From a virus (lineage: Duplodnaviria > Caudoviricetes): 33,619 nt of DNA. Location: IMG/VR virus record IMGVR_UViG_3300032216_001682, positions 1 through 33,619 of that record, one strand, 5' to 3'. A program made the translations under genes and the position numbers. The notes below the pieces were generated by a model, which did not search any database, was not told where the DNA came from, and was given only the letters and a program-made list of their open reading frames with translations. Position 1 is the stretch's first letter; each line of letters starts with the position of its first letter. Positions 10,974 to 29,627 of this stretch are shown here, piece after piece.

Positions 10974-10989
10974 CCCCCCCCCCCCCCCC
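10974..10989. repeat. C16/G16 homopolymer
   Basis: 16 consecutive C in the intergenic region downstream of cI. Confidence 0.9.
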
Positions 10990-17252: not shown

Positions 17253-17648
17253 ATGGCGGCCTCATCCACCACGCGCCGAGGTAACGGCGCCGGCTGGGGT
17301 GGCGCTGCCAAGGGCGCCGGCAAGCAAGGCGCAGGGCAGGGCCAGGGCCGCCCTGACGGCGTGAAAGACGGCCAGGGCAAGCAGGCGCAGGCGCGCGCAG
17401 CCCTGGAAGATGCGCTGCCGCTGGCGGTGCAGACGGTCATCGGCATTGCCGGCGACATCACAGACCAACGCGCGCTGCAGGCCGCGAGCAACATCATCGA
17501 CCGGGTGCTGGGCAAAGTGGGCGACAAGCTGACTGTGGCCGGTGACGCGGACGCGCCGCTCGTGATCCGGCGCATCATTATCGACCCGAAGGGGCCAAAT
17601 GGACATTCAGACGCCGCGAGCGTTTCAGCCGTTTCTGCGGCCGAGTAG
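17253..17648 (+). CDS. terS: Terminase small subunit (putative)
   Basis: Overlaps the terL start; GAGQGQGRPDG...ALQAASNIIDRVLGK...GDADAPL. Confidence 0.7.
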   Translation: MAASSTTRRGNGAGWGGAAKGAGKQGAGQGQGRPDGVKDGQGKQAQARAALEDALPLAVQTVIGIAGDITDQRALQAASNIIDRVLGKVGDKLTVAGDADAPLVIRRIIIDPKGPNGHSDAASVSAVSAAE

Positions 17649-19542
17649 GTACAAAGGGGCGTTTGGGGGCCGAGGAAGCGGCAAGAGCCATTTCTTTGCG
17701 GAGGCGGTGGTAGAGCGTTGCATCATGCAGCCTGGCAGCCGGATCGTTTGCGTTCGTGAGGTGCAAAAGAGCTTGAAGGACAGCGTAAAGCGGCTGATTG
17801 AGGATAAAATTTCCGCCCTAGGCGTTGGCGGCAAGTTTGACGTGAAGGCCACGGAGATCGGCACGCCGGGGGGCGGCGTGATCGTCTTCCAGGGCCTGCA
17901 GGATCACACGGCCGAGAGCGTGAAGTCGCTTGAGGGTTTTCATGTGGCATGGGCGGAAGAGGCGCAGAGCCTTTCGGCCAGGTCGATGGAGCTGCTGCGG
18001 CCGACGATCCGCGCGCCAGGCTCGGAGCTGTGGTTTAGCTGGAACCCGCGCAGTGCGGCCGATCCGGTGGACGAGCTGCTGCGTGGCATTACGCCGCCGC
18101 CGGACGCTATCGTGCGCCAGGTCAACTATAGCGATAACCCGTTTTTTCCGGTCGAGCTTGAGGCCGAGCGTGAATATGACGAGCGGACCAAGCCGGCGCG
18201 GTATGGGCATATCTGGCTGGGCGCTTATGAGCCTGTGGCCATTGGTGCCATCTGGGATCGCCTGATGCTGCACCGCAATCGCCGGCAGGACATGCCGGAG
18301 ATGTCGCGCATTCTGGTAAGTGTGGATCCGGCCGTGTCGAACGAGGCCGGCAGCGACGAGCATGGCATCGTGGTCGTCGGCATCGGTGCGGATGGGCGCG
18401 GCTACCTGCTGGCGGATTACAGCCTGCGCGGATCGCCCATGCAGTGGGCAGGGCGGGCGGTGGCGGCGCTGGACGAGTTCGGCGCGGATGCCATTGTGAT
18501 CGAGCGCAACCAGGGCGGCGACATGTGCGCCCAGACGTTGCGCACGGTGCGGCCGCATCTGCGGATCATCGAGGTGGTGGCCACGCGCGGCAAGCATGTG
18601 CGGGCCGAGCCTATCGCGGCGCTCTATAGCCTGGATCGGATTAGCCATGTGGGCACGTTCCAGCGGCTGGAGGATCAGATGTGCGTGGCGGCCGGCACGC
18701 TGATTGAAACTGAACGAGGACAAATAACAATTGATCAGGTGACAGTTTGTGATAAAGTGCTGACAAGGAACGGCTTTGCCCCAATCAAGTGGGTGGGTCG
18801 GACTGGATCAGCAACTGAGATTGTCGAGATAGCGACATTTCAATCACGATTGAAGGTCACTGCATGTCATCCGATCTTCTTACCGCTTCGTGGCGAGTTT
18901 GTGAGTGCCGCGACTGTGCGGCATACGGACTGCCTGCTCGAAAGCCCCAATTGGGGGTGTATGGCGCGCCCATTGCGTGGCGGGGAAAGTGGTATCACAG
19001 GATGCGCGCCGGTCATTACAGGCACGCCAAGGGAAAATTACTGCACCGAGCCGTTTACGAGGCCCATATTGGGCCGCTTGCGCCGGGCCTTGACGTGCAT
19101 CACCGCGATGATAACCCAGGCAATAACTTGCCTGAGAACTTGGTCGCCCTTACGCGGGCTGAGCACCACGCAGAGCACAGGCGTGTCGGTTTTGACGTGT
19201 TTGGCCCCGGGAGCACAGGCGTCTGCGTTGTCTGCGGCGCCAAAACTAGAACAGTTCGAGCCGTCCCAGCGCAGTATTGCGGAAATACGTGTGTTGTCCG
19301 CGCTATCCGAAAGCGTGCCCGTTTACAACTTAAGTGTGGCTGACGGGTATTTGCCTGAATATTACGCAAACGGCATTCTTACGCATAATTGCCAGATGAC
19401 CGCCGGCGGGTACGAGGGCGATGGATCGCCTGACCGGGTGGACGCCATGGTCTGGGGCTTTACGGAACTATTTCCGGCAATCAACCGGGCGAAGGCCAAG
19501 CCGCGCGAGCGAGAGCGCGCGCCAGTGAGTTGGATGGGATGA
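17599..19542 (+). CDS. terL: Terminase large subunit containing an intein (411 aa after splicing)
   Basis: Walker A GGRGSGKS, Walker B AWAEEAQ, and nuclease motifs VSVDPA and SPDRVDA. Confidence 0.95.
   Translation: MDIQTPRAFQPFLRPSRYKGAFGGRGSGKSHFFAEAVVERCIMQPGSRIVCVREVQKSLKDSVKRLIEDKISALGVGGKFDVKATEIGTPGGGVIVFQGLQDHTAESVKSLEGFHVAWAEEAQSLSARSMELLRPTIRAPGSELWFSWNPRSAADPVDELLRGITPPPDAIVRQVNYSDNPFFPVELEAEREYDERTKPARYGHIWLGAYEPVAIGAIWDRLMLHRNRRQDMPEMSRILVSVDPAVSNEAGSDEHGIVVVGIGADGRGYLLADYSLRGSPMQWAGRAVAALDEFGADAIVIERNQGGDMCAQTLRTVRPHLRIIEVVATRGKHVRAEPIAALYSLDRISHVGTFQRLEDQMCVAAGTLIETERGQITIDQVTVCDKVLTRNGFAPIKWVGRTGSATEIVEIATFQSRLKVTACHPIFLPLRGEFVSAATVRHTDCLLESPNWGCMARPLRGGESGITGCAPVITGTPRENYCTEPFTRPILGRLRRALTCITAMITQAITCLRTWSPLRGLSTTQSTGVSVLTCLAPGAQASALSAAPKLEQFEPSQRSIAEIRVLSALSESVPVYNLSVADGYLPEYYANGILTHNCQMTAGGYEGDGSPDRVDAMVWGFTELFPAINRAKAKPRERERAPVSWMG
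18682..19389 (+). mobile_element. Class-1 intein, 236 aa, in the TerL nuclease domain
   Basis: Block A CVAAGTLIET, block B VTACHPIF, block F VYNLSV and block G ILTHN followed by extein Cys. Removal restores RLEDQM-CQMTAGG. Confidence 0.95.
18864..19343 (+). CDS. HNH homing endonuclease nested out of frame inside the intein
   Basis: LHRAVYEAHIGPLAPGLDVHHRDDNPGNNLPENLVALTRAEHHAEH plus CVVC...YCGNTC. GAAGGT precedes the ATG. Confidence 0.88.
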   Translation: MSSDLLTASWRVCECRDCAAYGLPARKPQLGVYGAPIAWRGKWYHRMRAGHYRHAKGKLLHRAVYEAHIGPLAPGLDVHHRDDNPGNNLPENLVALTRAEHHAEHRRVGFDVFGPGSTGVCVVCGAKTRTVRAVPAQYCGNTCVVRAIRKRARLQLKCG

Positions 19543-19754
19543 TGGCGCCGGCACCGCTGCGCATTGTGCATGCCGGCATCCGCTACGGCGTGACTGCTGA
19601 CGGCAAGCAGGTGGCTTGGCTGCCCCCGTCCATGTGGGCGGCTGCGGCGGCTTTGGTGCGGCAGATGGACGAGATGAACGCGACGGCTGAGCGCATGCAG
19701 ATGCTCTACGACGCGGCGGAAAATGCGGCTTTTGCGGAATTAGCAAAGCCCTAA
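19539..19754 (+). CDS. Hypothetical protein between terL and portal
   Basis: ATGA overlap with the terL stop. Confidence 0.6.
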   Translation: MMAPAPLRIVHAGIRYGVTADGKQVAWLPPSMWAAAAALVRQMDEMNATAERMQMLYDAAENAAFAELAKP

Positions 19755-19761
19755 CGAGGGA

Positions 19762-19785
19762 CCGGCACGCTGTGAAGCGCCCCGG
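19762..19785 (+). promoter_or_regulatory. CGCT-GTGA-AGCG hairpin, copy 1 (portal leader)
   Basis: CCGG-ca-CGCT-gtga-AGCG-cc-CCGG between GAGGG and the ATG. Confidence 0.7.
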
Positions 19786-19791
19786 CATCGC

Positions 19792-21714
19792 ATGCCTGAC
19801 GACATCATTGAGGACGCGCTAGAGCAGTATCGCTTCAGTGCGGAAGGTAGCGCGCATATTCGCGAGCTGGCGCTTGAGGACATCAAATTCGCTAGGTTGG
19901 GCGATCAGTGGAAAGACAAGGACCGCCGCGCCCGTGAAGAAGAAGGCCGGCCCTGCCTGACGGTCAACCGGCTGCCGACATTCATCCGCCGCGTGGTCAA
20001 CGACGCGCGCCAGAATAAGCCCAGCATCAGCGTGCATCCGGTGGACGGTGGCGCGGACTATGACACGGCGCAGGTGATTGGTGGGCTGATCCGGGCCATT
20101 GAGCGCGGCAGTAACGCGGCCCTGGCCTATGATACGGCAATCGACAACGCGGCCAGCTGCGGCTTTGGGTTTTTCCGCATCACGACCGACTACTGCAACC
20201 CTGAGAGTTTTGATCAAGAGGCGCGGATTGAGCGGGTTGCCAATCCGTTCTCAGTGCATTGGGACGTGTCCAGCACGCAGTTTGACGCCAGCGATTGGGG
20301 TTTCGCATTCGTCTCTGATCTGCTGACTGACGACGAGTTTAAGCGCCGTTACCCCAAGGCCGACCATGCTTCCGACTGGCGCGAAGGCCAGGGCGAGGGC
20401 ATGGAAGACTGGGTAGACGAAGAGCGCATCCGCGTGGCCGAATACTGGCTGCGCGAAGAGCGAAAGCGCAAAATCCTGCGGCTGACTGACGGCCGCGTAA
20501 TGCGCGCGGACCAGATGGACGAGCTGGTGCAGATCGGCCCCGGCCTGATGCTGCCGATGAAGGAAACGCTGGCGTTTCAGGGGCTGGCGGTCAACGGCGA
20601 GCGCGAGGCAACCTATTTTGACGTGACGCGGCGCGTCATCAACGCGGTTGAGGTGCTGAGCGAAGAGAAATGGCCTGGCACCATGATCCCGATTTGCCCT
20701 GTCTGGGGTGAAGAGGTGATTTACCGCGGCAAGCGGCATTTCCGCAGCCTGATCCGCGATGCGCGCGACAGTCAGGTCATGTTCAACGCTTGGCGCAGTG
20801 CTTCGACTGAGCTGGTGATGTTGGCGCCGCGCGCGCCGTGGCTGGTGGCGACCGGCAGCATCCCGCCCGATGAGGTGCTGAAGTGGGAGACGGCAAACAC
20901 CCGCAACCACGCATATCTTGAGTATGACCCGGCCATGGGGCCGATGCCGCAGCGCATCCCGTTTTCTGGCGTGCCGGCTGGTGCGCTGCAGGAAGCGCTG
21001 AATGCGCAAGACGACATGAAGGCGGTAACGGGCATCTATGACGCGGCGCTTGGCGCGCGCGGCAATGAGACGAGCGGCCGGGCGATTATGGCGCGGCAGC
21101 GCGAAAGCGACACCGGCACGTTCCATTTTATCGACAACATGAGCCGCGCCATTCAATACGCCGGCCGGGTGCTGATCGAGATTATCCCGAGCATCTACAG
21201 CGAGCGCCAGACCATCCAAATCCTGGGCGACGACGAGAAGCAGCGGGTGGAGCGGGTGACGGCTGCTGTGGGCTCGCCGCCCAGCGCGGAAGACCCAGAC
21301 GGCAAGATCTATAACTTGGCCGCCGGCAAGTACGATGTGACGGTTAAGGTGGGGCCAAACTACCAGACGCAGCGCGAAGAGAGCGTGGCGGCCATGACGG
21401 AGCTGATGCGGTCGTATCCGCCGGCCGCCGAGGCGCTGGGCGATCTGGTGGTGCAGAATATGGACTGGCCGGGCGCCGACAAGGCGTCTGAACGCATCCA
21501 GGTGCTGCAGTTTGCCAAGGGTATGGAGATGGGCCTGCCCTATCAGGTGCTGGCCGAGATGATGCCGCAGGCCGCGCGGAAATTCCCGCCGCCGCAGCCT
21601 CCGCAGCCGCAAGGGCCGCCTGGGATGCCCCCGGGCATGATGCCACAACCAATGCAGGGGATGCCGCAGGGCATGCCCCCAGGAATGCCGCCGGGGCAGA
21701 TGCCCCAGGGGTGA
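19792..21714 (+). CDS. Portal protein, P22-like
   Basis: GDQW...RPCLTVNRL, RVAEYW, ETSGRAIMARQ and YDVTVKVGPNYQTQREE motifs; P/Q/G/M-rich tail. Confidence 0.92.
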   Translation: MPDDIIEDALEQYRFSAEGSAHIRELALEDIKFARLGDQWKDKDRRAREEEGRPCLTVNRLPTFIRRVVNDARQNKPSISVHPVDGGADYDTAQVIGGLIRAIERGSNAALAYDTAIDNAASCGFGFFRITTDYCNPESFDQEARIERVANPFSVHWDVSSTQFDASDWGFAFVSDLLTDDEFKRRYPKADHASDWREGQGEGMEDWVDEERIRVAEYWLREERKRKILRLTDGRVMRADQMDELVQIGPGLMLPMKETLAFQGLAVNGEREATYFDVTRRVINAVEVLSEEKWPGTMIPICPVWGEEVIYRGKRHFRSLIRDARDSQVMFNAWRSASTELVMLAPRAPWLVATGSIPPDEVLKWETANTRNHAYLEYDPAMGPMPQRIPFSGVPAGALQEALNAQDDMKAVTGIYDAALGARGNETSGRAIMARQRESDTGTFHFIDNMSRAIQYAGRVLIEIIPSIYSERQTIQILGDDEKQRVERVTAAVGSPPSAEDPDGKIYNLAAGKYDVTVKVGPNYQTQREESVAAMTELMRSYPPAAEALGDLVVQNMDWPGADKASERIQVLQFAKGMEMGLPYQVLAEMMPQAARKFPPPQPPQPQGPPGMPPGMMPQPMQGMPQGMPPGMPPGQMPQG

Positions 21715-21738
21715 CGACACGTCCGCATGTGCGGGCGC

Positions 21739-21758
21739 GCAGCGCTGTGAAGCGCCGC
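21739..21758 (+). promoter_or_regulatory. CGCT-GTGA-AGCG hairpin, copy 2 (scaffold leader)
   Basis: GC-a-GCGCT-gtga-AGCGC-c-GC. Confidence 0.7.
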
Positions 21759-21804
21759 TTTCTCAGTGCCGGGGGCAACCCCGGCCCGATAGACCGGAAT
21801 AAAT

Positions 21805-22719
21805 ATGTCAGAGACCATCGAGACCGCTGGGCAACCAGGAACGGTTGACGAGGACCTGCGCGACGTAGCGGCGCCCGCTTACGGCATGCAGGACGATGGC
21901 GCGGAAGGCGCCGACGAGCAGGACGAGGCCAAGCCGGAAGAGATCGAAGAGATCGAACTTTCGTTTGGCGCGAAAACGCTCAAAGTGGCGAAGAGCGCCA
22001 TTCCTGACGAGGTTCGGACTGAACTCGAAGAGTTCACGAAGAACATTCAGGGCGATTACACCCGCAAGACGCAGGAAGTCGCCGAGCAGCGCAAAGAGGT
22101 TGAACTGCAGCGCGAGCTGTACGGCAAACTTCAAACGCTGGGCGGTGAGGCTAGGACTGCGTTTTATGCGGGCGAGGCTCTACTGAAAGAGCTTCAGCAG
22201 CTTGAGCAGATCGACTTGCGCCAGTTGCGGCAGTCCAACCCGGACCAAGCCCGCTGGATCAGTGACGAGATTGCCATCAAGCGCGGTGAGTTTAACCGCC
22301 AGGTCAATGCAGTTTCGCATTACGAACAAGCCATGACCGCAGAAGAGCAGCGCGCAGTTGCCACGCTTGCGGAAGCTGGCCGGGCGCGTATTGCCAAAAC
22401 TGTGCGGGGATTTGACCAGGCCGCAGAGCGCCAAATGATCGAATATGCGGTGAAGGCCGGCATAAGCGAGCAGGACGCGCAGAAGTGGCCGCTCAATCCG
22501 ATTACCGCGGAGTTCGCTTGGAAAGCAATGCAGTACGACAAACTGCACGCATCCACCAAAGCCGCAACTGCGGCAAAGCCTAACGCTGCTCCCTCGGCTC
22601 CGGTTCGTGCCGTCAGCGGGAAGTCAACCGGCGCTTCGGTCAAGTCTCCCGACCAGATGAGCGACGACGAGTATTATCGCTTCGAAATGTCCAAAACCGT
22701 CAAGGCGATGCGCCGCTAA
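21805..22719 (+). CDS. Capsid scaffolding protein
   Basis: Lies between portal and coat. Acidic N-terminus, DYTRKTQEVAEQRK motif, coiled coil and C-terminal MSDDEY. Confidence 0.85.
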   Translation: MSETIETAGQPGTVDEDLRDVAAPAYGMQDDGAEGADEQDEAKPEEIEEIELSFGAKTLKVAKSAIPDEVRTELEEFTKNIQGDYTRKTQEVAEQRKEVELQRELYGKLQTLGGEARTAFYAGEALLKELQQLEQIDLRQLRQSNPDQARWISDEIAIKRGEFNRQVNAVSHYEQAMTAEEQRAVATLAEAGRARIAKTVRGFDQAAERQMIEYAVKAGISEQDAQKWPLNPITAEFAWKAMQYDKLHASTKAATAAKPNAAPSAPVRAVSGKSTGASVKSPDQMSDDEYYRFEMSKTVKAMRR

Positions 22720-22747
22720 GAGCGGGCCGCCTGACACAGATAGGGAA

Positions 22748-22769
22748 CGGAGCGCTGTGAAGCGCCCCG
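22748..22769 (+). promoter_or_regulatory. CGCT-GTGA-AGCG hairpin, copy 3 (coat leader)
   Basis: CGG-a-GCGCT-gtga-AGCGC-c-CCG between AGGGA and the ATG. Confidence 0.7.
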
Positions 22770-22778
22770 CGTAAACGC

Positions 22779-23963
22779 ATGTCGAATACACTTCTTACTG
22801 TTGACAAGATCACGCGCAAGGCGCTTGTGGTCTTGCACCAAAACCTGAACTTCATCGGCAACATTGACCGCCAGTATGACAGTTCGTTCGCCAATGCTGG
22901 CGCGCAGATCGGTGACACGCTGCGCATCCGCCTGCCGAACCAGTACACGGTTCGCACCGGCAGCACCTGGTCTGCCCCGGCCATCACCGAGCAGTCGGTG
23001 AGCCTGCAGGTCAACCGCTATCGCGGTGTGGACATGAACTTCTCCGATCAGGACCTGACCCTGAAGGTGGAAGATTTCACCGAGCGCCACATCAAGCCCG
23101 CCATGGCGGTGCTGGCCTCGCACATTGAGAACGACGCGCTCTCCATGTGCAACAGCGTCTATCAGGCGGTGAACAACGTGGGCACTGCCATCGGCACCCG
23201 CAACGTGAACCTGGCCGGCAAGGCGCTGACTGACGCGCTGGCGCCGCCGAGCGACCGCAACATCATCCTGAATACCACCGACCGCGTGGATTTCTTGGAA
23301 GCCACCAAGGGCCTCTTTCAGGATAGCACGGCAATCAAGCAGCAATACCGTGAGGGCATGATCGGCCGGATGGGTGGTTTCGACTTCTACGAAAACACGC
23401 TGATCCCGACCTCGACGACCGGCACCGCCGCATCGGCCACCACCTACACGGTGAACGGTGCATCGCAGACCGGCTCCAGCATCACCGTCGCTACCGGTTC
23501 CACGACCTTTGCCGTGGGCGACGTCATTACCTTCGCCGGTTGCAACCGCGTCCATCCTGAAACCAAGGCGGACACGGGCGTGCTGCAGCAGTTTGTCATC
23601 ACGGCGGCTTATGCCGGCGGCGCTGGCAACCTGACCATTGCGCCTGCCATCGTGACCTCTACCGCCCGTCAAAACGTCTCCGCCAGCCCGACCAACGGCG
23701 GCGCGGTGGTGAAAGTGGGCGGCGCCTCGGCCGTCTACAAACCGAGCCTGGCGTTCCACAAGGATGCGTTCACCTTCGCTACGGCTGACCTGCCGATGCC
23801 CAAGGGCACCGACATGGCCTACCGCAGCGTGATGGACGGCATTTCCATGCGCATGATCCGGGACTTTGACAGCGTCAACGCGCGCTACATCACCCGCCTG
23901 GACGTGCTGTATGGCTATGTGGCGCAGCGCCCCGAGCTGGCCTGCCGCATCCTCTCGAACTAA
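22779..23963 (+). CDS. Major capsid protein, P22 coat-like
   Basis: MSNTLLT...IGDTLRIRLP...LAFHKDAF...RLDVLYG...RPELACR; strongly biased codon use. Confidence 0.93.
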   Translation: MSNTLLTVDKITRKALVVLHQNLNFIGNIDRQYDSSFANAGAQIGDTLRIRLPNQYTVRTGSTWSAPAITEQSVSLQVNRYRGVDMNFSDQDLTLKVEDFTERHIKPAMAVLASHIENDALSMCNSVYQAVNNVGTAIGTRNVNLAGKALTDALAPPSDRNIILNTTDRVDFLEATKGLFQDSTAIKQQYREGMIGRMGGFDFYENTLIPTSTTGTAASATTYTVNGASQTGSSITVATGSTTFAVGDVITFAGCNRVHPETKADTGVLQQFVITAAYAGGAGNLTIAPAIVTSTARQNVSASPTNGGAVVKVGGASAVYKPSLAFHKDAFTFATADLPMPKGTDMAYRSVMDGISMRMIRDFDSVNARYITRLDVLYGYVAQRPELACRILSN

Positions 23964-24366: not shown

Positions 24367-24579
24367 ATGCCGTATATCGAATTTCCAAAAGCGCTCTATC
24401 TGCGCGGCTGGGACGATCTGGACGCCTGCGTCACGGTGCAGAATGCTGAGCAGGAGCAGGACGCCCGCGCACAGGGCTACAGGAGCCTTGCTGAGCCGCC
24501 TGTGGAGCTAGAGGCGGGTGAGGATACCCCGGACGCGCCCAAGCGCCGTGGGCGGCCGCCAAAGGCGGCTGAGGCGTGA
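24367..24579 (+). CDS. Small protein with a C-terminal AT-hook
   Basis: GGAGG SD; PKRRGRPPK. Confidence 0.75.
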   Translation: MPYIEFPKALYLRGWDDLDACVTVQNAEQEQDARAQGYRSLAEPPVELEAGEDTPDAPKRRGRPPKAAEA

Positions 24580-25304
24580 GCCTTCTTACGATTTGCCAGG
24601 CGGTGGCCGACGATATCGGCCTCGACGTGCGCCCGACTGTTGTGTTTGGTAATCCAGACGTTGACGCGCAGCGCATGCTGCGGATGGCTGGTCGGGTGTG
24701 TTCCGACCTTGCCACGCGCGCGCCATGGCAGGCGCTGCGGCGCGAGGTGACATTCACGACCGTGGCGGCCGAGGCGCAGCCTGGCGTTTTTCCGGCGGAC
24801 TTCCATCGCATGTCACCGGAAACGCTATGGGACCGGACCAACAACATTTTCATTTCGGGCCAGATGAGCCCGACCGAATACCAATCCCGCAGAAACTCGC
24901 CGCTAATGGCTGGTTATGCCGGACCGATGCGATGGTTCACGCGGCGTGATGATGCGCTGCTGATCTGGCCTGCGCCGCCGGCTGGCCTCACTGTCGCATT
25001 TGAATATCAGAGCGTGGCCTTCTGCCGCTCGGCCGCGGGTGTGGATCAGACGGCGTGGGCGGCTGACACCGATCTGTCCAATCTGTCGGAAGAGCTGGTG
25101 ACGCTGGGCCTGATTGCCCGGTTCCTTGAGGCGGACGGCCAGCCCTGGCAAGGGGCCAAGGCTGAGTTTGAAAAGCGCTTGACGCGCGAAATGCGGGCCG
25201 ACCGCAACGCGCCGCGCATCCTAATGGTGAGCGACATCTTTGGCGGATCGCGGCGCTTTAGCGGCGAGCCTGGACCGGATGGCAATATCGGGTACTACTA
25301 CTGA
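24576..25304 (+). CDS. Head-tail adaptor / tail tubular protein A-like
   Basis: MSLLTICQAVAD N-terminus, LIWPAP...VAFEY, and gene position. Confidence 0.7.
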   Translation: MSLLTICQAVADDIGLDVRPTVVFGNPDVDAQRMLRMAGRVCSDLATRAPWQALRREVTFTTVAAEAQPGVFPADFHRMSPETLWDRTNNIFISGQMSPTEYQSRRNSPLMAGYAGPMRWFTRRDDALLIWPAPPAGLTVAFEYQSVAFCRSAAGVDQTAWAADTDLSNLSEELVTLGLIARFLEADGQPWQGAKAEFEKRLTREMRADRNAPRILMVSDIFGGSRRFSGEPGPDGNIGYYY

Positions 25305-26812: not shown

Positions 26813-27240
26813 CGCTGGTTTATGGTCAAAGCCGGGCGGTGGCCGAGTGGGTGGCCGCTCAAATGCCGCACATTATGGACCCGCCGGCCGACTGCGCCGC
26901 CATCGGTGTGGCGCGCGATGGGGTGCTGATCGCGGGCGTGGTCTACCATAACTACTTTCCTGCCTATGCGGGCATTGAGATGAGCATAGCCGCGACCTCG
27001 CCGCGCTGGGCAACGCGCGGCGTTATTCGTGAGCTGCTGGCCTATCCTTTTGTGCAGCTGGGTTGCCGCTGGGTGGTGGCGAGCGTGGAGCATAGCAACA
27101 CACGCGCGCTGCGGTTCAACAAAGGGATCGGCTTTGTCCAGCGAGGCATTATGCCTGATTTTTATGCGCCGAAAAGGCACTGCGTCCTGATGTCATTGCC
27201 GGCGCGTGGCTTCGCGCGGCTGTTTAAAAAGGCCGGATAA
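26809..27240 (+). CDS. GNAT-fold protein of the podovirus tail/ejection module
   Basis: AYPFVQLGC...NTRALRFNKGIGFVQRG; lies between the nozzle and ejection genes. Confidence 0.8.
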   Translation: MTLVYGQSRAVAEWVAAQMPHIMDPPADCAAIGVARDGVLIAGVVYHNYFPAYAGIEMSIAATSPRWATRGVIRELLAYPFVQLGCRWVVASVEHSNTRALRFNKGIGFVQRGIMPDFYAPKRHCVLMSLPARGFARLFKKAG

Positions 27241-29627
27241 TGAGCAAGAAATCGCCATCGCCGCCGCCCGCACCCGATCCCGTCGCCACGGCGCAGGCGC
27301 AGGGCCAGGTCAATGCTGAGACCGCCCGGCTACAGGGGCGCATGAACAGGCTGGATCAGGTCACGCCCTACGGCAATGTCACCTATGACGACATCGGCAA
27401 CGACCGCGCCCGCGTCACGACGACGCTAGCCCCGGCGCAGCAGCGCCAGCTTGAACTGACAAATCAGGCGCAGGAGCTTTATGGCACGGCGGCAGTGTCG
27501 CAGCTTGGCCAGGTGCAGAATGCCCTATCTCAGCCGTTCCAGTATCAGGGGCCGGGCGTGCAAACGCTCGTGGCTGATCGCGCTGGTGGGCTCTTCTATA
27601 ATCTTCCTGGCACTTATGAGAACGATCTTCGGCGCAGCGTTACCGACCGCACTGGCCAGGTTCAGCAGAGCGTGCAGGACCGCAACGGCCAGCTCCAGCA
27701 AAGCGTCACCGACCGTACTGGCCAGTTGCAGCAAGGGGTGCAGGACCGAACGGGCGGCCTAAACTATGCCATCCCTGGCCAATACGAGGGCCAGCTGCAA
27801 ACCAGCGTCATGGACCGCAATGGCCAATTGCAACGGGGCGTTTCTGATCGCACGGGCCAACTTCAACAGGGCATCATAGACCGGAATGGTCAGTTACAGC
27901 AGAATGTGACAGACCGTACTGGCCAATTGCAGCAAAGCGTGCAGGACCGCACAGGCCAATTGCAGCTCAGCGTACAGGATCGCACCGGCGACGTTCAACG
28001 CGGGGTTATGGACCGCACTGGAGAACTGCAACGTAGCGTACAGGATCGCACCGGAGATGTCGCGCAACGAGCTGATTTTACTGGTGTTGGGGACGCAAAC
28101 CAAGCCCGCTCGGATGTAGAGGCGGCGCTTCTGGCGCGCATGAACCCCCAACTAGAAGCGCAACGTGCGGCACTTGAAGCGCGGTTAGTAAATCAGGGCA
28201 TTACGCCGGGCTCGCAAGCCTGGGAGACTGGTATGCGCGACTATGCGCAACAGGCCAATGATGCGCGCTATGGCGCCATTCTTAATGCTGGCCAAGAACA
28301 AAGCCGCATATTTAATTTGGGTTTTGGTCAGACTAATTTGAGAAACCAAGCGATTGCTCAAAATATGGCCAACGACCTACAGCGTGGGCAGTTTGCAAGT
28401 AACGCGACAGCACAACTAATGTCCAACGACTTGCAGCGTGGGCAGTTCGCAAACGAAGCGACAAACCAAATTATGTCGAATGATTTGCAGCGCGGTCAAT
28501 TTGCCAACAATGCGATTGGCCAAGCGGCGCAAATGGATCTAGCGCGGGCCGGGTTTCAAAATCAGGCGGCAGGCCAGGGTTCTGGTATGGACTTGGCTAA
28601 TGCGGCTTTCCGCAATCAAGCAGCGGGCCAAGCAACGCAAGCGGATTTGGCGCGAGCACAATTTGTAAATCAGGCCGCAGGCCAAGCGTCCGGCATGGAT
28701 TTGGCAAATGCACAGTTTGGCAATCAAGCGACGGCGCAAGCTACGCAAGCGGACCTAGCTCGGGCGCAATTTGGCAACCAGGCGGCCGGCCAGGGCCAGC
28801 AGATGTTCATGGACCGCGCAGGCTTTGGCAACCAGGCGCTGCAACAAGCCTACGGCATGGACATGGGCCGTGCTCAGTTTGTCAATCAAGCAGCCGGCCA
28901 GGCGTCCGCTCTTGACCTAGCGAACGCCGCCTTTCGCAACCAAACAACGGGTCAAGCAACACAATCCGATCTGGCGCGGGCTGGCTTTGGCAATCAGGCT
29001 GTGCAGCAACTATACGGTATGGACCTGGGCAACGCGCAGTTTGCGAACGACACAACGCAGCGCGCTGCCGACATGTACACGCAGCGCGCGCAGTTCAACA
29101 ATCAAGCGCAGCAGCAGGCGTATGGCATGGATATCGGCCGGGCGCAGCTGAACAACGCAGGCGTGCAACAGTCGCTGCAGCAGCAGCTCGCGCTGCGCGG
29201 CCAGCCAATCAACGAGGCCGCGGCGCTGCTGTCTGGCCAGCAGATACAGTATCCGCAGTTTCAGAATGTGCCGCAGGTTCAAATCCAGGCGCCGGATTAT
29301 CAGGGCATTGTGGCGCAGAATTATGCGGCGGCAAACTCGCAATACAACGCAGCCCTGCAGCGGCAGGGGGCCAATAATGCCGCGATTGGGCAGTTTGGCG
29401 GCCAAGCGTTGGGCGCGGCGGCGATGGCGTTCTCTGACCGCCGGTTGAAGCGCAACGCCGAGCGTATTGGCACCGGCTCTCACGGGCTGCCGATCTACCG
29501 ATATGAATACCTCTGGGGCGAGCCTGCCATTGGCTACATGGCCGACGATGTGGCGGCGGTGGCGCCGCATGCGGTCACGGTGGGCCCTGATGGGTTTGCG
29601 CAGGTCAATTATGGAGCGCTGGCATGA
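27240..29627 (+). CDS. Ejection/DNA-transfer protein with long repeat arrays and a C-terminal peptidase S74 chaperone domain
   Basis: MSKKSPSPPPAPDPVATAQAQ N-terminus, Q/N/A-rich repeats and FSDRRLKRN...YRYEY...GYMADDV. Confidence 0.8.
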   Translation: MSKKSPSPPPAPDPVATAQAQGQVNAETARLQGRMNRLDQVTPYGNVTYDDIGNDRARVTTTLAPAQQRQLELTNQAQELYGTAAVSQLGQVQNALSQPFQYQGPGVQTLVADRAGGLFYNLPGTYENDLRRSVTDRTGQVQQSVQDRNGQLQQSVTDRTGQLQQGVQDRTGGLNYAIPGQYEGQLQTSVMDRNGQLQRGVSDRTGQLQQGIIDRNGQLQQNVTDRTGQLQQSVQDRTGQLQLSVQDRTGDVQRGVMDRTGELQRSVQDRTGDVAQRADFTGVGDANQARSDVEAALLARMNPQLEAQRAALEARLVNQGITPGSQAWETGMRDYAQQANDARYGAILNAGQEQSRIFNLGFGQTNLRNQAIAQNMANDLQRGQFASNATAQLMSNDLQRGQFANEATNQIMSNDLQRGQFANNAIGQAAQMDLARAGFQNQAAGQGSGMDLANAAFRNQAAGQATQADLARAQFVNQAAGQASGMDLANAQFGNQATAQATQADLARAQFGNQAAGQGQQMFMDRAGFGNQALQQAYGMDMGRAQFVNQAAGQASALDLANAAFRNQTTGQATQSDLARAGFGNQAVQQLYGMDLGNAQFANDTTQRAADMYTQRAQFNNQAQQQAYGMDIGRAQLNNAGVQQSLQQQLALRGQPINEAAALLSGQQIQYPQFQNVPQVQIQAPDYQGIVAQNYAAANSQYNAALQRQGANNAAIGQFGGQALGAAAMAFSDRRLKRNAERIGTGSHGLPIYRYEYLWGEPAIGYMADDVAAVAPHAVTVGPDGFAQVNYGALA
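27576..28075 (+). repeat. About 13 coding DR(T/N)GQLQQSVx units (11-aa period, two 23-aa variants)
   Basis: Read from the translation. Confidence 0.9.
28371..29180 (+). repeat. 15 coding 18-aa units, consensus MDLARAQFxNQAAGQAxx
   Basis: Read from the translation; ungapped 54-bp period. Confidence 0.9.

Follow-up and report, generated by a model that had tools for sequence, protein, structure and literature searches.

The scaffolding protein of phage P22 autoregulates translation. In phage T4, genes 25 and 38 have split ribosome-binding sites, in which the Shine-Dalgarno (SD) sequence lies too far from the AUG and a hairpin stands between the two (accessible text of PMC3014915), and the ribosomal proteins uL1, uS8 and bL20 have operators that are covarying, ribosomal RNA (rRNA)-like 5' leaders overlapping a translation start (accessible portions of PMC10931766 and PMC7247131). 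The Com operator in the mom leader of phage Mu consists of a hairpin followed by a C-rich tract and GGAG (PMC6483171, in the part available). Helices 93 and 73 (H93, H73) of Escherichia coli 23S rRNA, at positions 2588-2612 and 2053-2058, include the sequence CG-UC-GUGA-GA-CG (PMC3919597, available text). All these systems share features with an RNA hairpin that is present in three copies, in the leaders of the portal, scaffold and coat genes, in a stretch of 33,619 nucleotides (nt) of viral DNA (Duplodnaviria; Caudoviricetes) corresponding to the whole of IMG/VR record IMGVR_UViG_3300032216_001682, hereafter the window.

The three hairpins fold as RNA, lie at the ribosome-binding sites of structural genes, covary across a family of leaders and bear a statistical likeness to 23S rRNA positions 2586-2612 and 2053-2058. 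The chances are nearly even, on the sequence comparisons presented here, that they are copies of a covarying leader RNA resembling H93, and in full-length copies also the end of H73, which likely works as a translational operator capturing a host H93-binding protein at the starts of virion genes. The ligand, the direction of control and its timing are the parts of this reading that we infer.

The locus would share with P22 the post-transcriptional control of a P22-type head module, whereas P22 itself has no such motif and almost no leaders in its head module, and the motif also stands on coat, portal and tail genes. As in T4, the SD is too far from the AUG and a hairpin intervenes at portal and coat, not at scaffold; unlike in T4, the element has a fixed loop and stem sequence that is repeated on three genes, and in most relatives the hairpin lies upstream of the SD. 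The resemblance to ribosomal protein leaders lies in a covarying, rRNA-like 5' leader that overlaps a translation start, but the phage element sits on structural genes and not on the operon of its putative ligand. No autogenous loop was found, the downstream genes coding for virion proteins and an S4-domain gene being present in 0 of 23 phage records. With the Mu operator it shares the succession of hairpin, C-rich tract and GGAG, and the loop of its second helix (P2) resembles CC(N)2-3GAG plus one extra base, whereas its first hairpin (P1) carries a GNRA (GNGA) tetraloop instead of the CC(N)2-3GAG hexaloop, and no com gene was found in 28 genomes or records.

Hairpins in the portal, scaffold and coat leaders

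The first-pass annotation of this DNA reported a 14-mer, CGCTGTGAAGCGCC, at positions 19768, 21743 and 22753, and these occurrences were confirmed, all on the + strand (as are all the features placed below) and with no other exact copy in the window. A poly-C run aside, it is the sole 14-mer present three times in the genome, with a chance expectation for such a triple of about 0.001 by our own arithmetic at 63% GC. PHROGs and Pfam bear out the identity of the downstream genes, namely portal (19792-21714; phrog_156, PF16510), scaffold (21805-22719; phrog_3927) and coat, the major capsid gene (22779-23963; phrog_283, PF11651). The record is a complete virus with direct terminal repeats, its genes include those for an integrase, a repressor and the proteins of a P22-like head module, and by its sequence the phage is a complete temperate P22-like phage.

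The GUGA-loop fold drawn earlier for the portal and coat hairpins was reproduced. Specifically, P1 of the portal leader (19762-19785) has an outer CCGG/CCGG stem, a 2x2 mismatch and a CGCU-GUGA-AGCG core, and P1 of the coat leader (22748-22769) has an outer CGG/CCG stem, an A.C mismatch and a GCGCU-GUGA-AGCGC core, with z-scores in isolation of -2.75 and -4.45, respectively. In longer context the two leaders are no more stable than shuffled sequences (z -0.67 and 0.19), hence the case for structure rests on covariation and not on energy. A covariance model of 20 rows, none from the window and some selected by our own patterns, finds exactly the three window copies, with E-values of 4e-3 (portal), 5e-5 (scaffold) and 3e-5 (coat); the next match is at 0.44.

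A displaced SD-like AGGGA, a sequence that can pair with the 3' end of 16S rRNA, stands 0 nt before the portal hairpin (19757-19761) and 1 nt before the coat hairpin (22742-22746), the ATG following 6 and 9 nt after the hairpin; folding reduces the SD-AUG distance from 30 nt to 6 unpaired nt at portal and from 32 nt to 10 at coat. The portal AGGGA is invariant in 10 of 10 rows of alignment A1, with no other SD adjoining the ATG. The proposed bridge of SD, hairpin and ATG thus stands for portal and coat and falls for scaffold, since P1 of the scaffold leader (21739-21758, H93-like, with an A.C mismatch at the 2589/2605-equivalent) heads a longer element and a weak SD-like GGA (21796-21798) sits 6 nt ahead of the ATG. 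This hairpin is the first third of a P1-P2-P3 element (21739-21793) whose P2 helix (21761-21793), like the end of H73, pairs UCUC (21761-21764) with GAUAGA (21788-21793) and encloses a variable hairpin, P3 (21768-21785). UCUC/GAUAGA is the compensated form of the UCCC/GAUGGA of the family, and the scaffold leader represents the compensated type in full, with P1, P2 and P3; both P2 and the likeness to H93/H73 had been overlooked in the first pass. A separate hairpin lies upstream (21720-21737), the arms of which are kept in close relatives while the loop varies. Two competing folds, a small hairpin burying the GGA versus P2 (folded over 21716-21825 and 21738-21795), could make the scaffold copy activating.

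SD bridging is real but, on the sequences compared, confined to the sub-clade of the window phage. The AGGGA-first layout was returned for 19 viral and 37 metagenome stretches, of which the genuine cases are starts of P22-type coat or portal genes where AGGGA and the core are 6 nt apart and the core and the ATG 12 or 14 nt. This spacing is constant across coats that are 47-100% identical (L639 has an extra, earlier ATG), and the split arrangement is kept in 8 distinct coat leaders plus the portal leaders, AGGGA having belonged to the search pattern; in the alignment, 4 of 9 pairs show double changes. The fixed spacing supports, in this sub-clade, the conserved geometry claimed for portal and coat. 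As a general function of the family, bridging is not supported: 77 of 110 unselected copies have an SD-like site between the hairpin and the ATG, and 4 of 110 have one upstream only.

Covariation and reach of the leader-RNA family

Relatives were fetched by protein alone (80 loci by coat, 71 by portal), head-gene leaders more than 80% identical were dropped (224 to 183) and the hairpin was sought as a Watson-Crick CG-NN-GNGA-(N)-NN-CG. It is carried by 34 of the 183 leaders (coat 22/68, portal 6/62, scaffold 6/53), against 0.335 on average, and 3 at most, in 200 dinucleotide shuffles, and both free pairs are Watson-Crick in 37/40 sense occurrences versus 1/5 antisense. When the stem is left free, the commonest loops are GUGA (13) and GAGA (10), nearly always with CG at -4/-3. 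Moreover, portal P1 of L123, L204 and L206 shows a C-G to U-A double change at 96-98% portal identity. RNA covariation and a fixed position in head-gene leaders, both foreseen in the first pass, are therefore supported. The evidence also opposes a DNA site independent of pairing: in 17 loci with copies that differ in arm sequence, 36 of 38 copies (a set that includes pattern-selected ones) are still self-complementary, which makes a palindromic DNA operator unlikely.

Some leaders of the relatives have features of their own. Sigma70-like promoter sequences lie just upstream of the portal hairpin in L251, L257 and L226, and in the portal leaders of L251, L257 and L266 the ATG follows a few bases after the hairpin with no SD between. 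Ten motif-negative relatives (L133, L136, L139, L140, L145, L147, L151, L178, L182 and L192) have terminator-like hairpins and U-runs just before the coat SD.

The window hairpins are, by sequence, members of a widespread and apparently uncatalogued phage leader-RNA family, in which P1 (CG-YY-GNGA-RR-CG) is often followed by the second covarying helix, P2, including the SD. Its members stand ahead of capsid, scaffold, portal and tail genes that belong to several unrelated head types, and most of them lie in alphaproteobacterial prophages. Downstream of exact matches to the 14-mer in IMG/VR, 17 of 44 open reading frames (ORFs; 53 before removal of duplicates and rows of the own clade) code for head, tail or connector proteins. 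A pattern of P1 plus a downstream TTCCC, i.e., one sequence variant, returned 122 IMG/VR stretches of an estimated 230 or so, most of which continue with GA(U/A/C)GGA and ATG and some of which are tandem or nested. A fuller pattern gave 42 matches in GTDB, 29 of them titled alphaproteobacterial; 38 of the 42 are followed, at a distance of 6-17 nt, by the start of an ORF, and 26 of those 38 code for virion proteins (16 for major head, 8 for tail, 1 for scaffold and 1 for portal proteins). A restriction to head genes or to P22-type phages is thus refuted, as the motif precedes at least six different major-head families, plus proteases, major tail and sheath genes.

P2 (N-C-Y-C with G-A-W-R-G-A) covaries as well. 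In 46 unselected copies the pair is C-G in 34, U-A in 5 and a mismatch in 7 (Fisher p 0.004, on a noisy regex assignment), and across IMG/VR the compensated form has 11 matches (3 of them, L621, L626 and L623, doubtful) and the uncompensated form 1. The pairing is retained even where the GGA is destroyed.

Searches elsewhere were negative. No Rfam 15 family covers any leader copy, either in the window between 19400 and 24500 (E<=10) or in 20 motif loci (E<=1). The P1 pattern is on neither strand of P22 1-9000, no P1 was found around the head genes of the cultured phages PAE2, P26218, PBR31, VvAW1, phiAX1 and P22, and a blastn search of INPHARED with two elements was uninformative. The bare P1 pattern occurs less often than its own control in 5 of 5 hosts. 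The full-text literature, in a coverage that leaves out most subscription journals, yielded no description of the motif or of H93 mimicry in phage mRNA, and the main text of PMC5737381 mentions neither capsid, GNRA nor rRNA. The accessible text of PMC10690425 lists candidate RNAs upstream of capsid genes, and the family may overlap with one of them, e.g., DNAVirus_1925 or DNAVirus_933.

Head genes of relatives occur in four metatranscriptome contig sets, in which contig depth cannot rank genes. In one RNA run a contig starts at 21738 with an adapter and in a second at 21805; a third RNA run and run X7 read across. These contig ends were not counted as evidence because they all belong to a single study and are explained equally well by reverse transcriptase stopping at the upstream hairpin.

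Likeness to 23S rRNA, putative readers and rival explanations

Run on 101 alphaproteobacterial genomes, the phage-only model R1, the E-values of which are rough, placed 5 of 30 fetched matches on the same 23S rRNA stretch, and its top match in the E. coli rrn locus is H93 (23S 2586-2612, E 8.5e-6), with A2602 as an insertion. According to the Rfam structure line, H93 pairs 2588-2594 with 2599-2606 around a bulge at 2602 and, after a 4-nt linker, C2611 and C2612 pair with G2057 and G2056 of H73. P1 matches H93 minus A2602, its commonest phage variant being identical to the CG-UC-GUGA-GA-CG of the rRNA, and P2 matches the end of H73 (2053-2058), including the GA-N-GGA partner strand, at the same spacing. 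The phage linker measures 6 nt in 14/34 copies, 5 nt in 11/34 and 7 nt in 8/34; the modal length, which is exactly that of the scaffold copy of the window, sets the paired C-Y on C2611/C2612. The profile of the phage partner strand ranks 23S 2051-2061, the true H73 partner, 3rd of 276 GG sites. The equivalent of the A2589-U2605 pair, unpaired where U2605 is flipped in the rRNA, is a mismatch in 16/20 and 9/10 rows, and both neighbouring pairs hold better. The equivalents of 2591, 2592 and 2595 are kept (fixed by the search pattern, near-invariant in an unbiased count), and those of 2593 and 2594 vary as pyrimidines.

The phage RNA differs from H93/H73 in its place in mRNA leaders, in the lack of the A2602 bulge and at the 2605-equivalent, which is mostly C in the family; all three window copies have C at both the 2604- and the 2605-equivalent. 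Moreover, the two H73 strands are permuted and closed by a short loop or by P3. As they stand in the reverse of the rRNA order, a simple captured rRNA fragment is excluded, and selection for a shared binder would be the simpler reading of that order. Intramolecular docking of P1 on P2 through a GNRA receptor was considered and dropped on geometry, given the rules for such receptors.

The shared translational operator proposed in the first pass survives as an idea, while its reading by a head protein is disfavoured. The most likely reader appears to be a protein of the host that binds H93, and not one of the phage head. Among such proteins, RluB clamps the 23S 2587-2607 stem-loop with its S4 domain on the loop, flips U2605, stacks Arg108 between the pairs 2588-2606 and 2590-2604 and contacts A2602 (PMC3919597, available text); the extension of uL2 sits in the H93 major groove (accessible part of PMC2330241), and the KH domain of EngA and ObgE also contact this helix (bioRxiv 10.64898/2026.02.15.706057, in the part seen). 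A pseudouridine synthase of the RluB/RluF type would be the best-fitting candidate, and an unpaired, mostly C 2605-equivalent would be in keeping with its binding but not turning over; the alternatives are free uL2 and an assembly GTPase. No small protein is common to the motif-bearing phages (62 loci of up to +-9 kb plus the window, and 26 largely whole records plus the window). A Com-type activator, suggested by the Mu mom leader, was rejected, PF10122 scoring over the cut-off in 0 of 28 genomes or records and the window holding no matching small Cys4 ORF. No element was found in the leaders of rluB in 11 examined matches to TIGR00093 (of 17).

In the proposed mechanism, the host protein that normally sits on H93 would bind P1 and block loading of the 30S subunit, either by stabilising a P2 that buries the SD or, in the portal and coat leaders, by occupying the hairpin that bridges SD and AUG. 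Present in limited amount, this protein would keep leaky late transcripts silent in the lysogen or in early infection, and the surge of late mRNA would relieve repression by titrating the protein out. The unbound hairpin in this sub-clade would, moreover, bring the SD and the AUG back to their usual spacing, as in T4 genes 25 and 38. A repressing, protein-bound operator is favoured because all layouts place P1 inside the ribosome-binding region or couple it to that region through P2.

Several observations weigh against this reading. Neither a bulged A2602 nor a U at the equivalent of 2605 or 2604 is present in the window, and since RluB contacts A2602, its absence counts against RluB in particular. 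Two stem pairs of the window copies are unlike those of H93, and the match of P1 taken by itself lacks significance, as 2 of 14 GNRA hairpins in E. coli 23S rRNA fit the pattern. The rRNA match was found after the fact, and the R1 score was raised for that variant because most R1 rows came from our own CGTCGTGAGACG patterns. Within P2, the GGA is expected from the SD function and the G at 2053 is fixed by the regex, and P3 departs from the H73 register. The portal and coat copies lack P2 altogether, and in the scaffold leader P2 formation would free the SD instead of burying it, so control may not have the same direction in every copy. The full pattern is not a feature of host chromosomes (3 of 201 Rhizobiales genomes versus controls in 11), a family-like element lies upstream in 1 of 30 rluB loci by the covariance model, and a phage reader that has diverged strongly could have escaped blastp clustering at E 1e-3.

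Two observations stand beside these. The CGCA-GUGA-UGCG variant of P1 in L253, L313, L326 and L347 resembles the other pattern-fitting 23S hairpin, at 2853. The lone rluB-locus case (L598:2937-2973, G271, a host genome; covariance model E 2.6e-6) precedes a 238-aa gene directly upstream of the rluB homologue, 797 nt ahead of the latter.

Among the rival explanations, the best supported is that the element has no protein partner and serves as a stable structural device, either spacing or exposing the SD, protecting the 5' part of abundant late mRNAs against nucleases or docking its GNRA loop directly on the ribosome, the H93 likeness being a coincidence or a by-product. The fixed layout of AGGGA, core and ATG across divergent coats, as in T4 genes 25/38 (accessible text of PMC3014915), speaks for such a device, as do the near-chance match of P1 alone to rRNA and the terminator-like hairpin found at the same place in many motif-negative relatives. 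A pure spacer or stabiliser, however, needs no CG at -4/-3, no GNGA over GNAA or UUCG and no fixed mismatch, copies occur in tandem and nested arrays, and P2 pairing is kept even at the cost of the GGA; the explanation is unlikely, though not negligible.

An operator read by the scaffold, coat or AT-hook protein of the phage itself, with feedback setting head-protein ratios, has in its favour that the three copies lie exactly on portal, scaffold and coat, that L257 also has motif variants in all three leaders and that head proteins and integrase are the sole protein clusters common to most motif-positive genomes. It is nonetheless rather improbable: the scaffolds behind the motif are unrelated and the capsid and tail families diverse, P22 head genes lack the motif, motif-negative relatives have the same head proteins and the likeness to H93/H73 would go unexplained. 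The AT-hook gene does not follow the motif (5 of 20 motif-positive, 4 of 7 motif-negative genomes), and the Atlas neighbours of its product are unnamed viral proteins.

Very unlikely is a decoy, borne by the most abundant late mRNAs, that sequesters a ribosome-maturation enzyme of the host or a defence protein aimed at rRNA, with the start-codon position incidental. The rRNA likeness, the tandem arrays and the non-U at the 2605-equivalent of most copies would suit it, but the element is tightly coupled to SD and ATG spacing in all layouts and is present before the low-copy portal gene.

Lastly, a transcriptional element, be it a palindromic operator in the DNA or a hairpin for boxB-like antitermination or for pausing, is suggested by the inverted-repeat core and by copies just downstream of promoter-like sequences (L251, L257) and is least probable of all, given a GNGA loop that is strand-specific (111 sense vs 34 antisense), half-sites that are not mixed between copies within genomes, a spacer of 4 or 5 nt and no promoter or terminator above chance in the head module of the phage, the terminator scan from the motifs to the end of the coat gene included.

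The surrounding genome and the biology of the family

Ahead of the portal leader, terL (17599-19542), also part of the P22-like head module, carries an intein-like insert, with a Hint-domain match from about residue 361 and an HNH endonuclease ORF (18864-19343) nested in another reading frame; contigs of relatives diverge from the window at 19405 and 19437, consistent with insert-less terL alleles. Between terL and portal, a 74-aa ORF (19530-19754) has no match in PHROG, Pfam, NCBIfam or Atlas and is common only to the window phage and G018 among 27 clustered genomes. In the fold, its bases 19749-19752, overlapping the stop codon, are able to pair with the portal SD, and hence portal translation may be coupled to termination of this ORF. 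In the coat gene, relatives in two RNA runs show inserted or swapped sequence at 23697-23730 (loose contig ends). Further downstream, a small GGC-GTGA-GCC-type hairpin (24569-24586), without the CG pairs of the family, has the GTG start of the adaptor gene (24576) in its loop, and a virion gene (27240-29627) contains 33-nt and 54-nt tandem repeats. A run of 16 C is found at 10974-10989, in the immunity/early region.

The silencing of structural genes until lysis, and the tuning of portal, scaffold, coat and tail proteins, are known for few model temperate phages. A short, searchable RNA family now stands at virion-gene starts across podo-, sipho- and myo-type modules, and direct testing is possible because named alphaproteobacterial lysogens carry a family element. 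Should mimicry play no part, the family still marks virion-gene starts, among them starts that have no SD nearby, and is a marker not catalogued before. Tentatively, and at somewhat less than even probability, a broad class of tailed phages and prophages may have placed a mimic of the peptidyl-transferase junction of the ribosome (H93 and the end of H73) at virion-gene starts, where a host ribosome-maturation protein such as RluB, or free uL2, would gate the translation of capsid and tail proteins. If the rRNA likeness is functional, a virus would, through rRNA mimicry, put a ribosome-assembly protein of its host in control of virion synthesis, and a role on mRNA would fall to an rRNA-modifying enzyme or to uL2.

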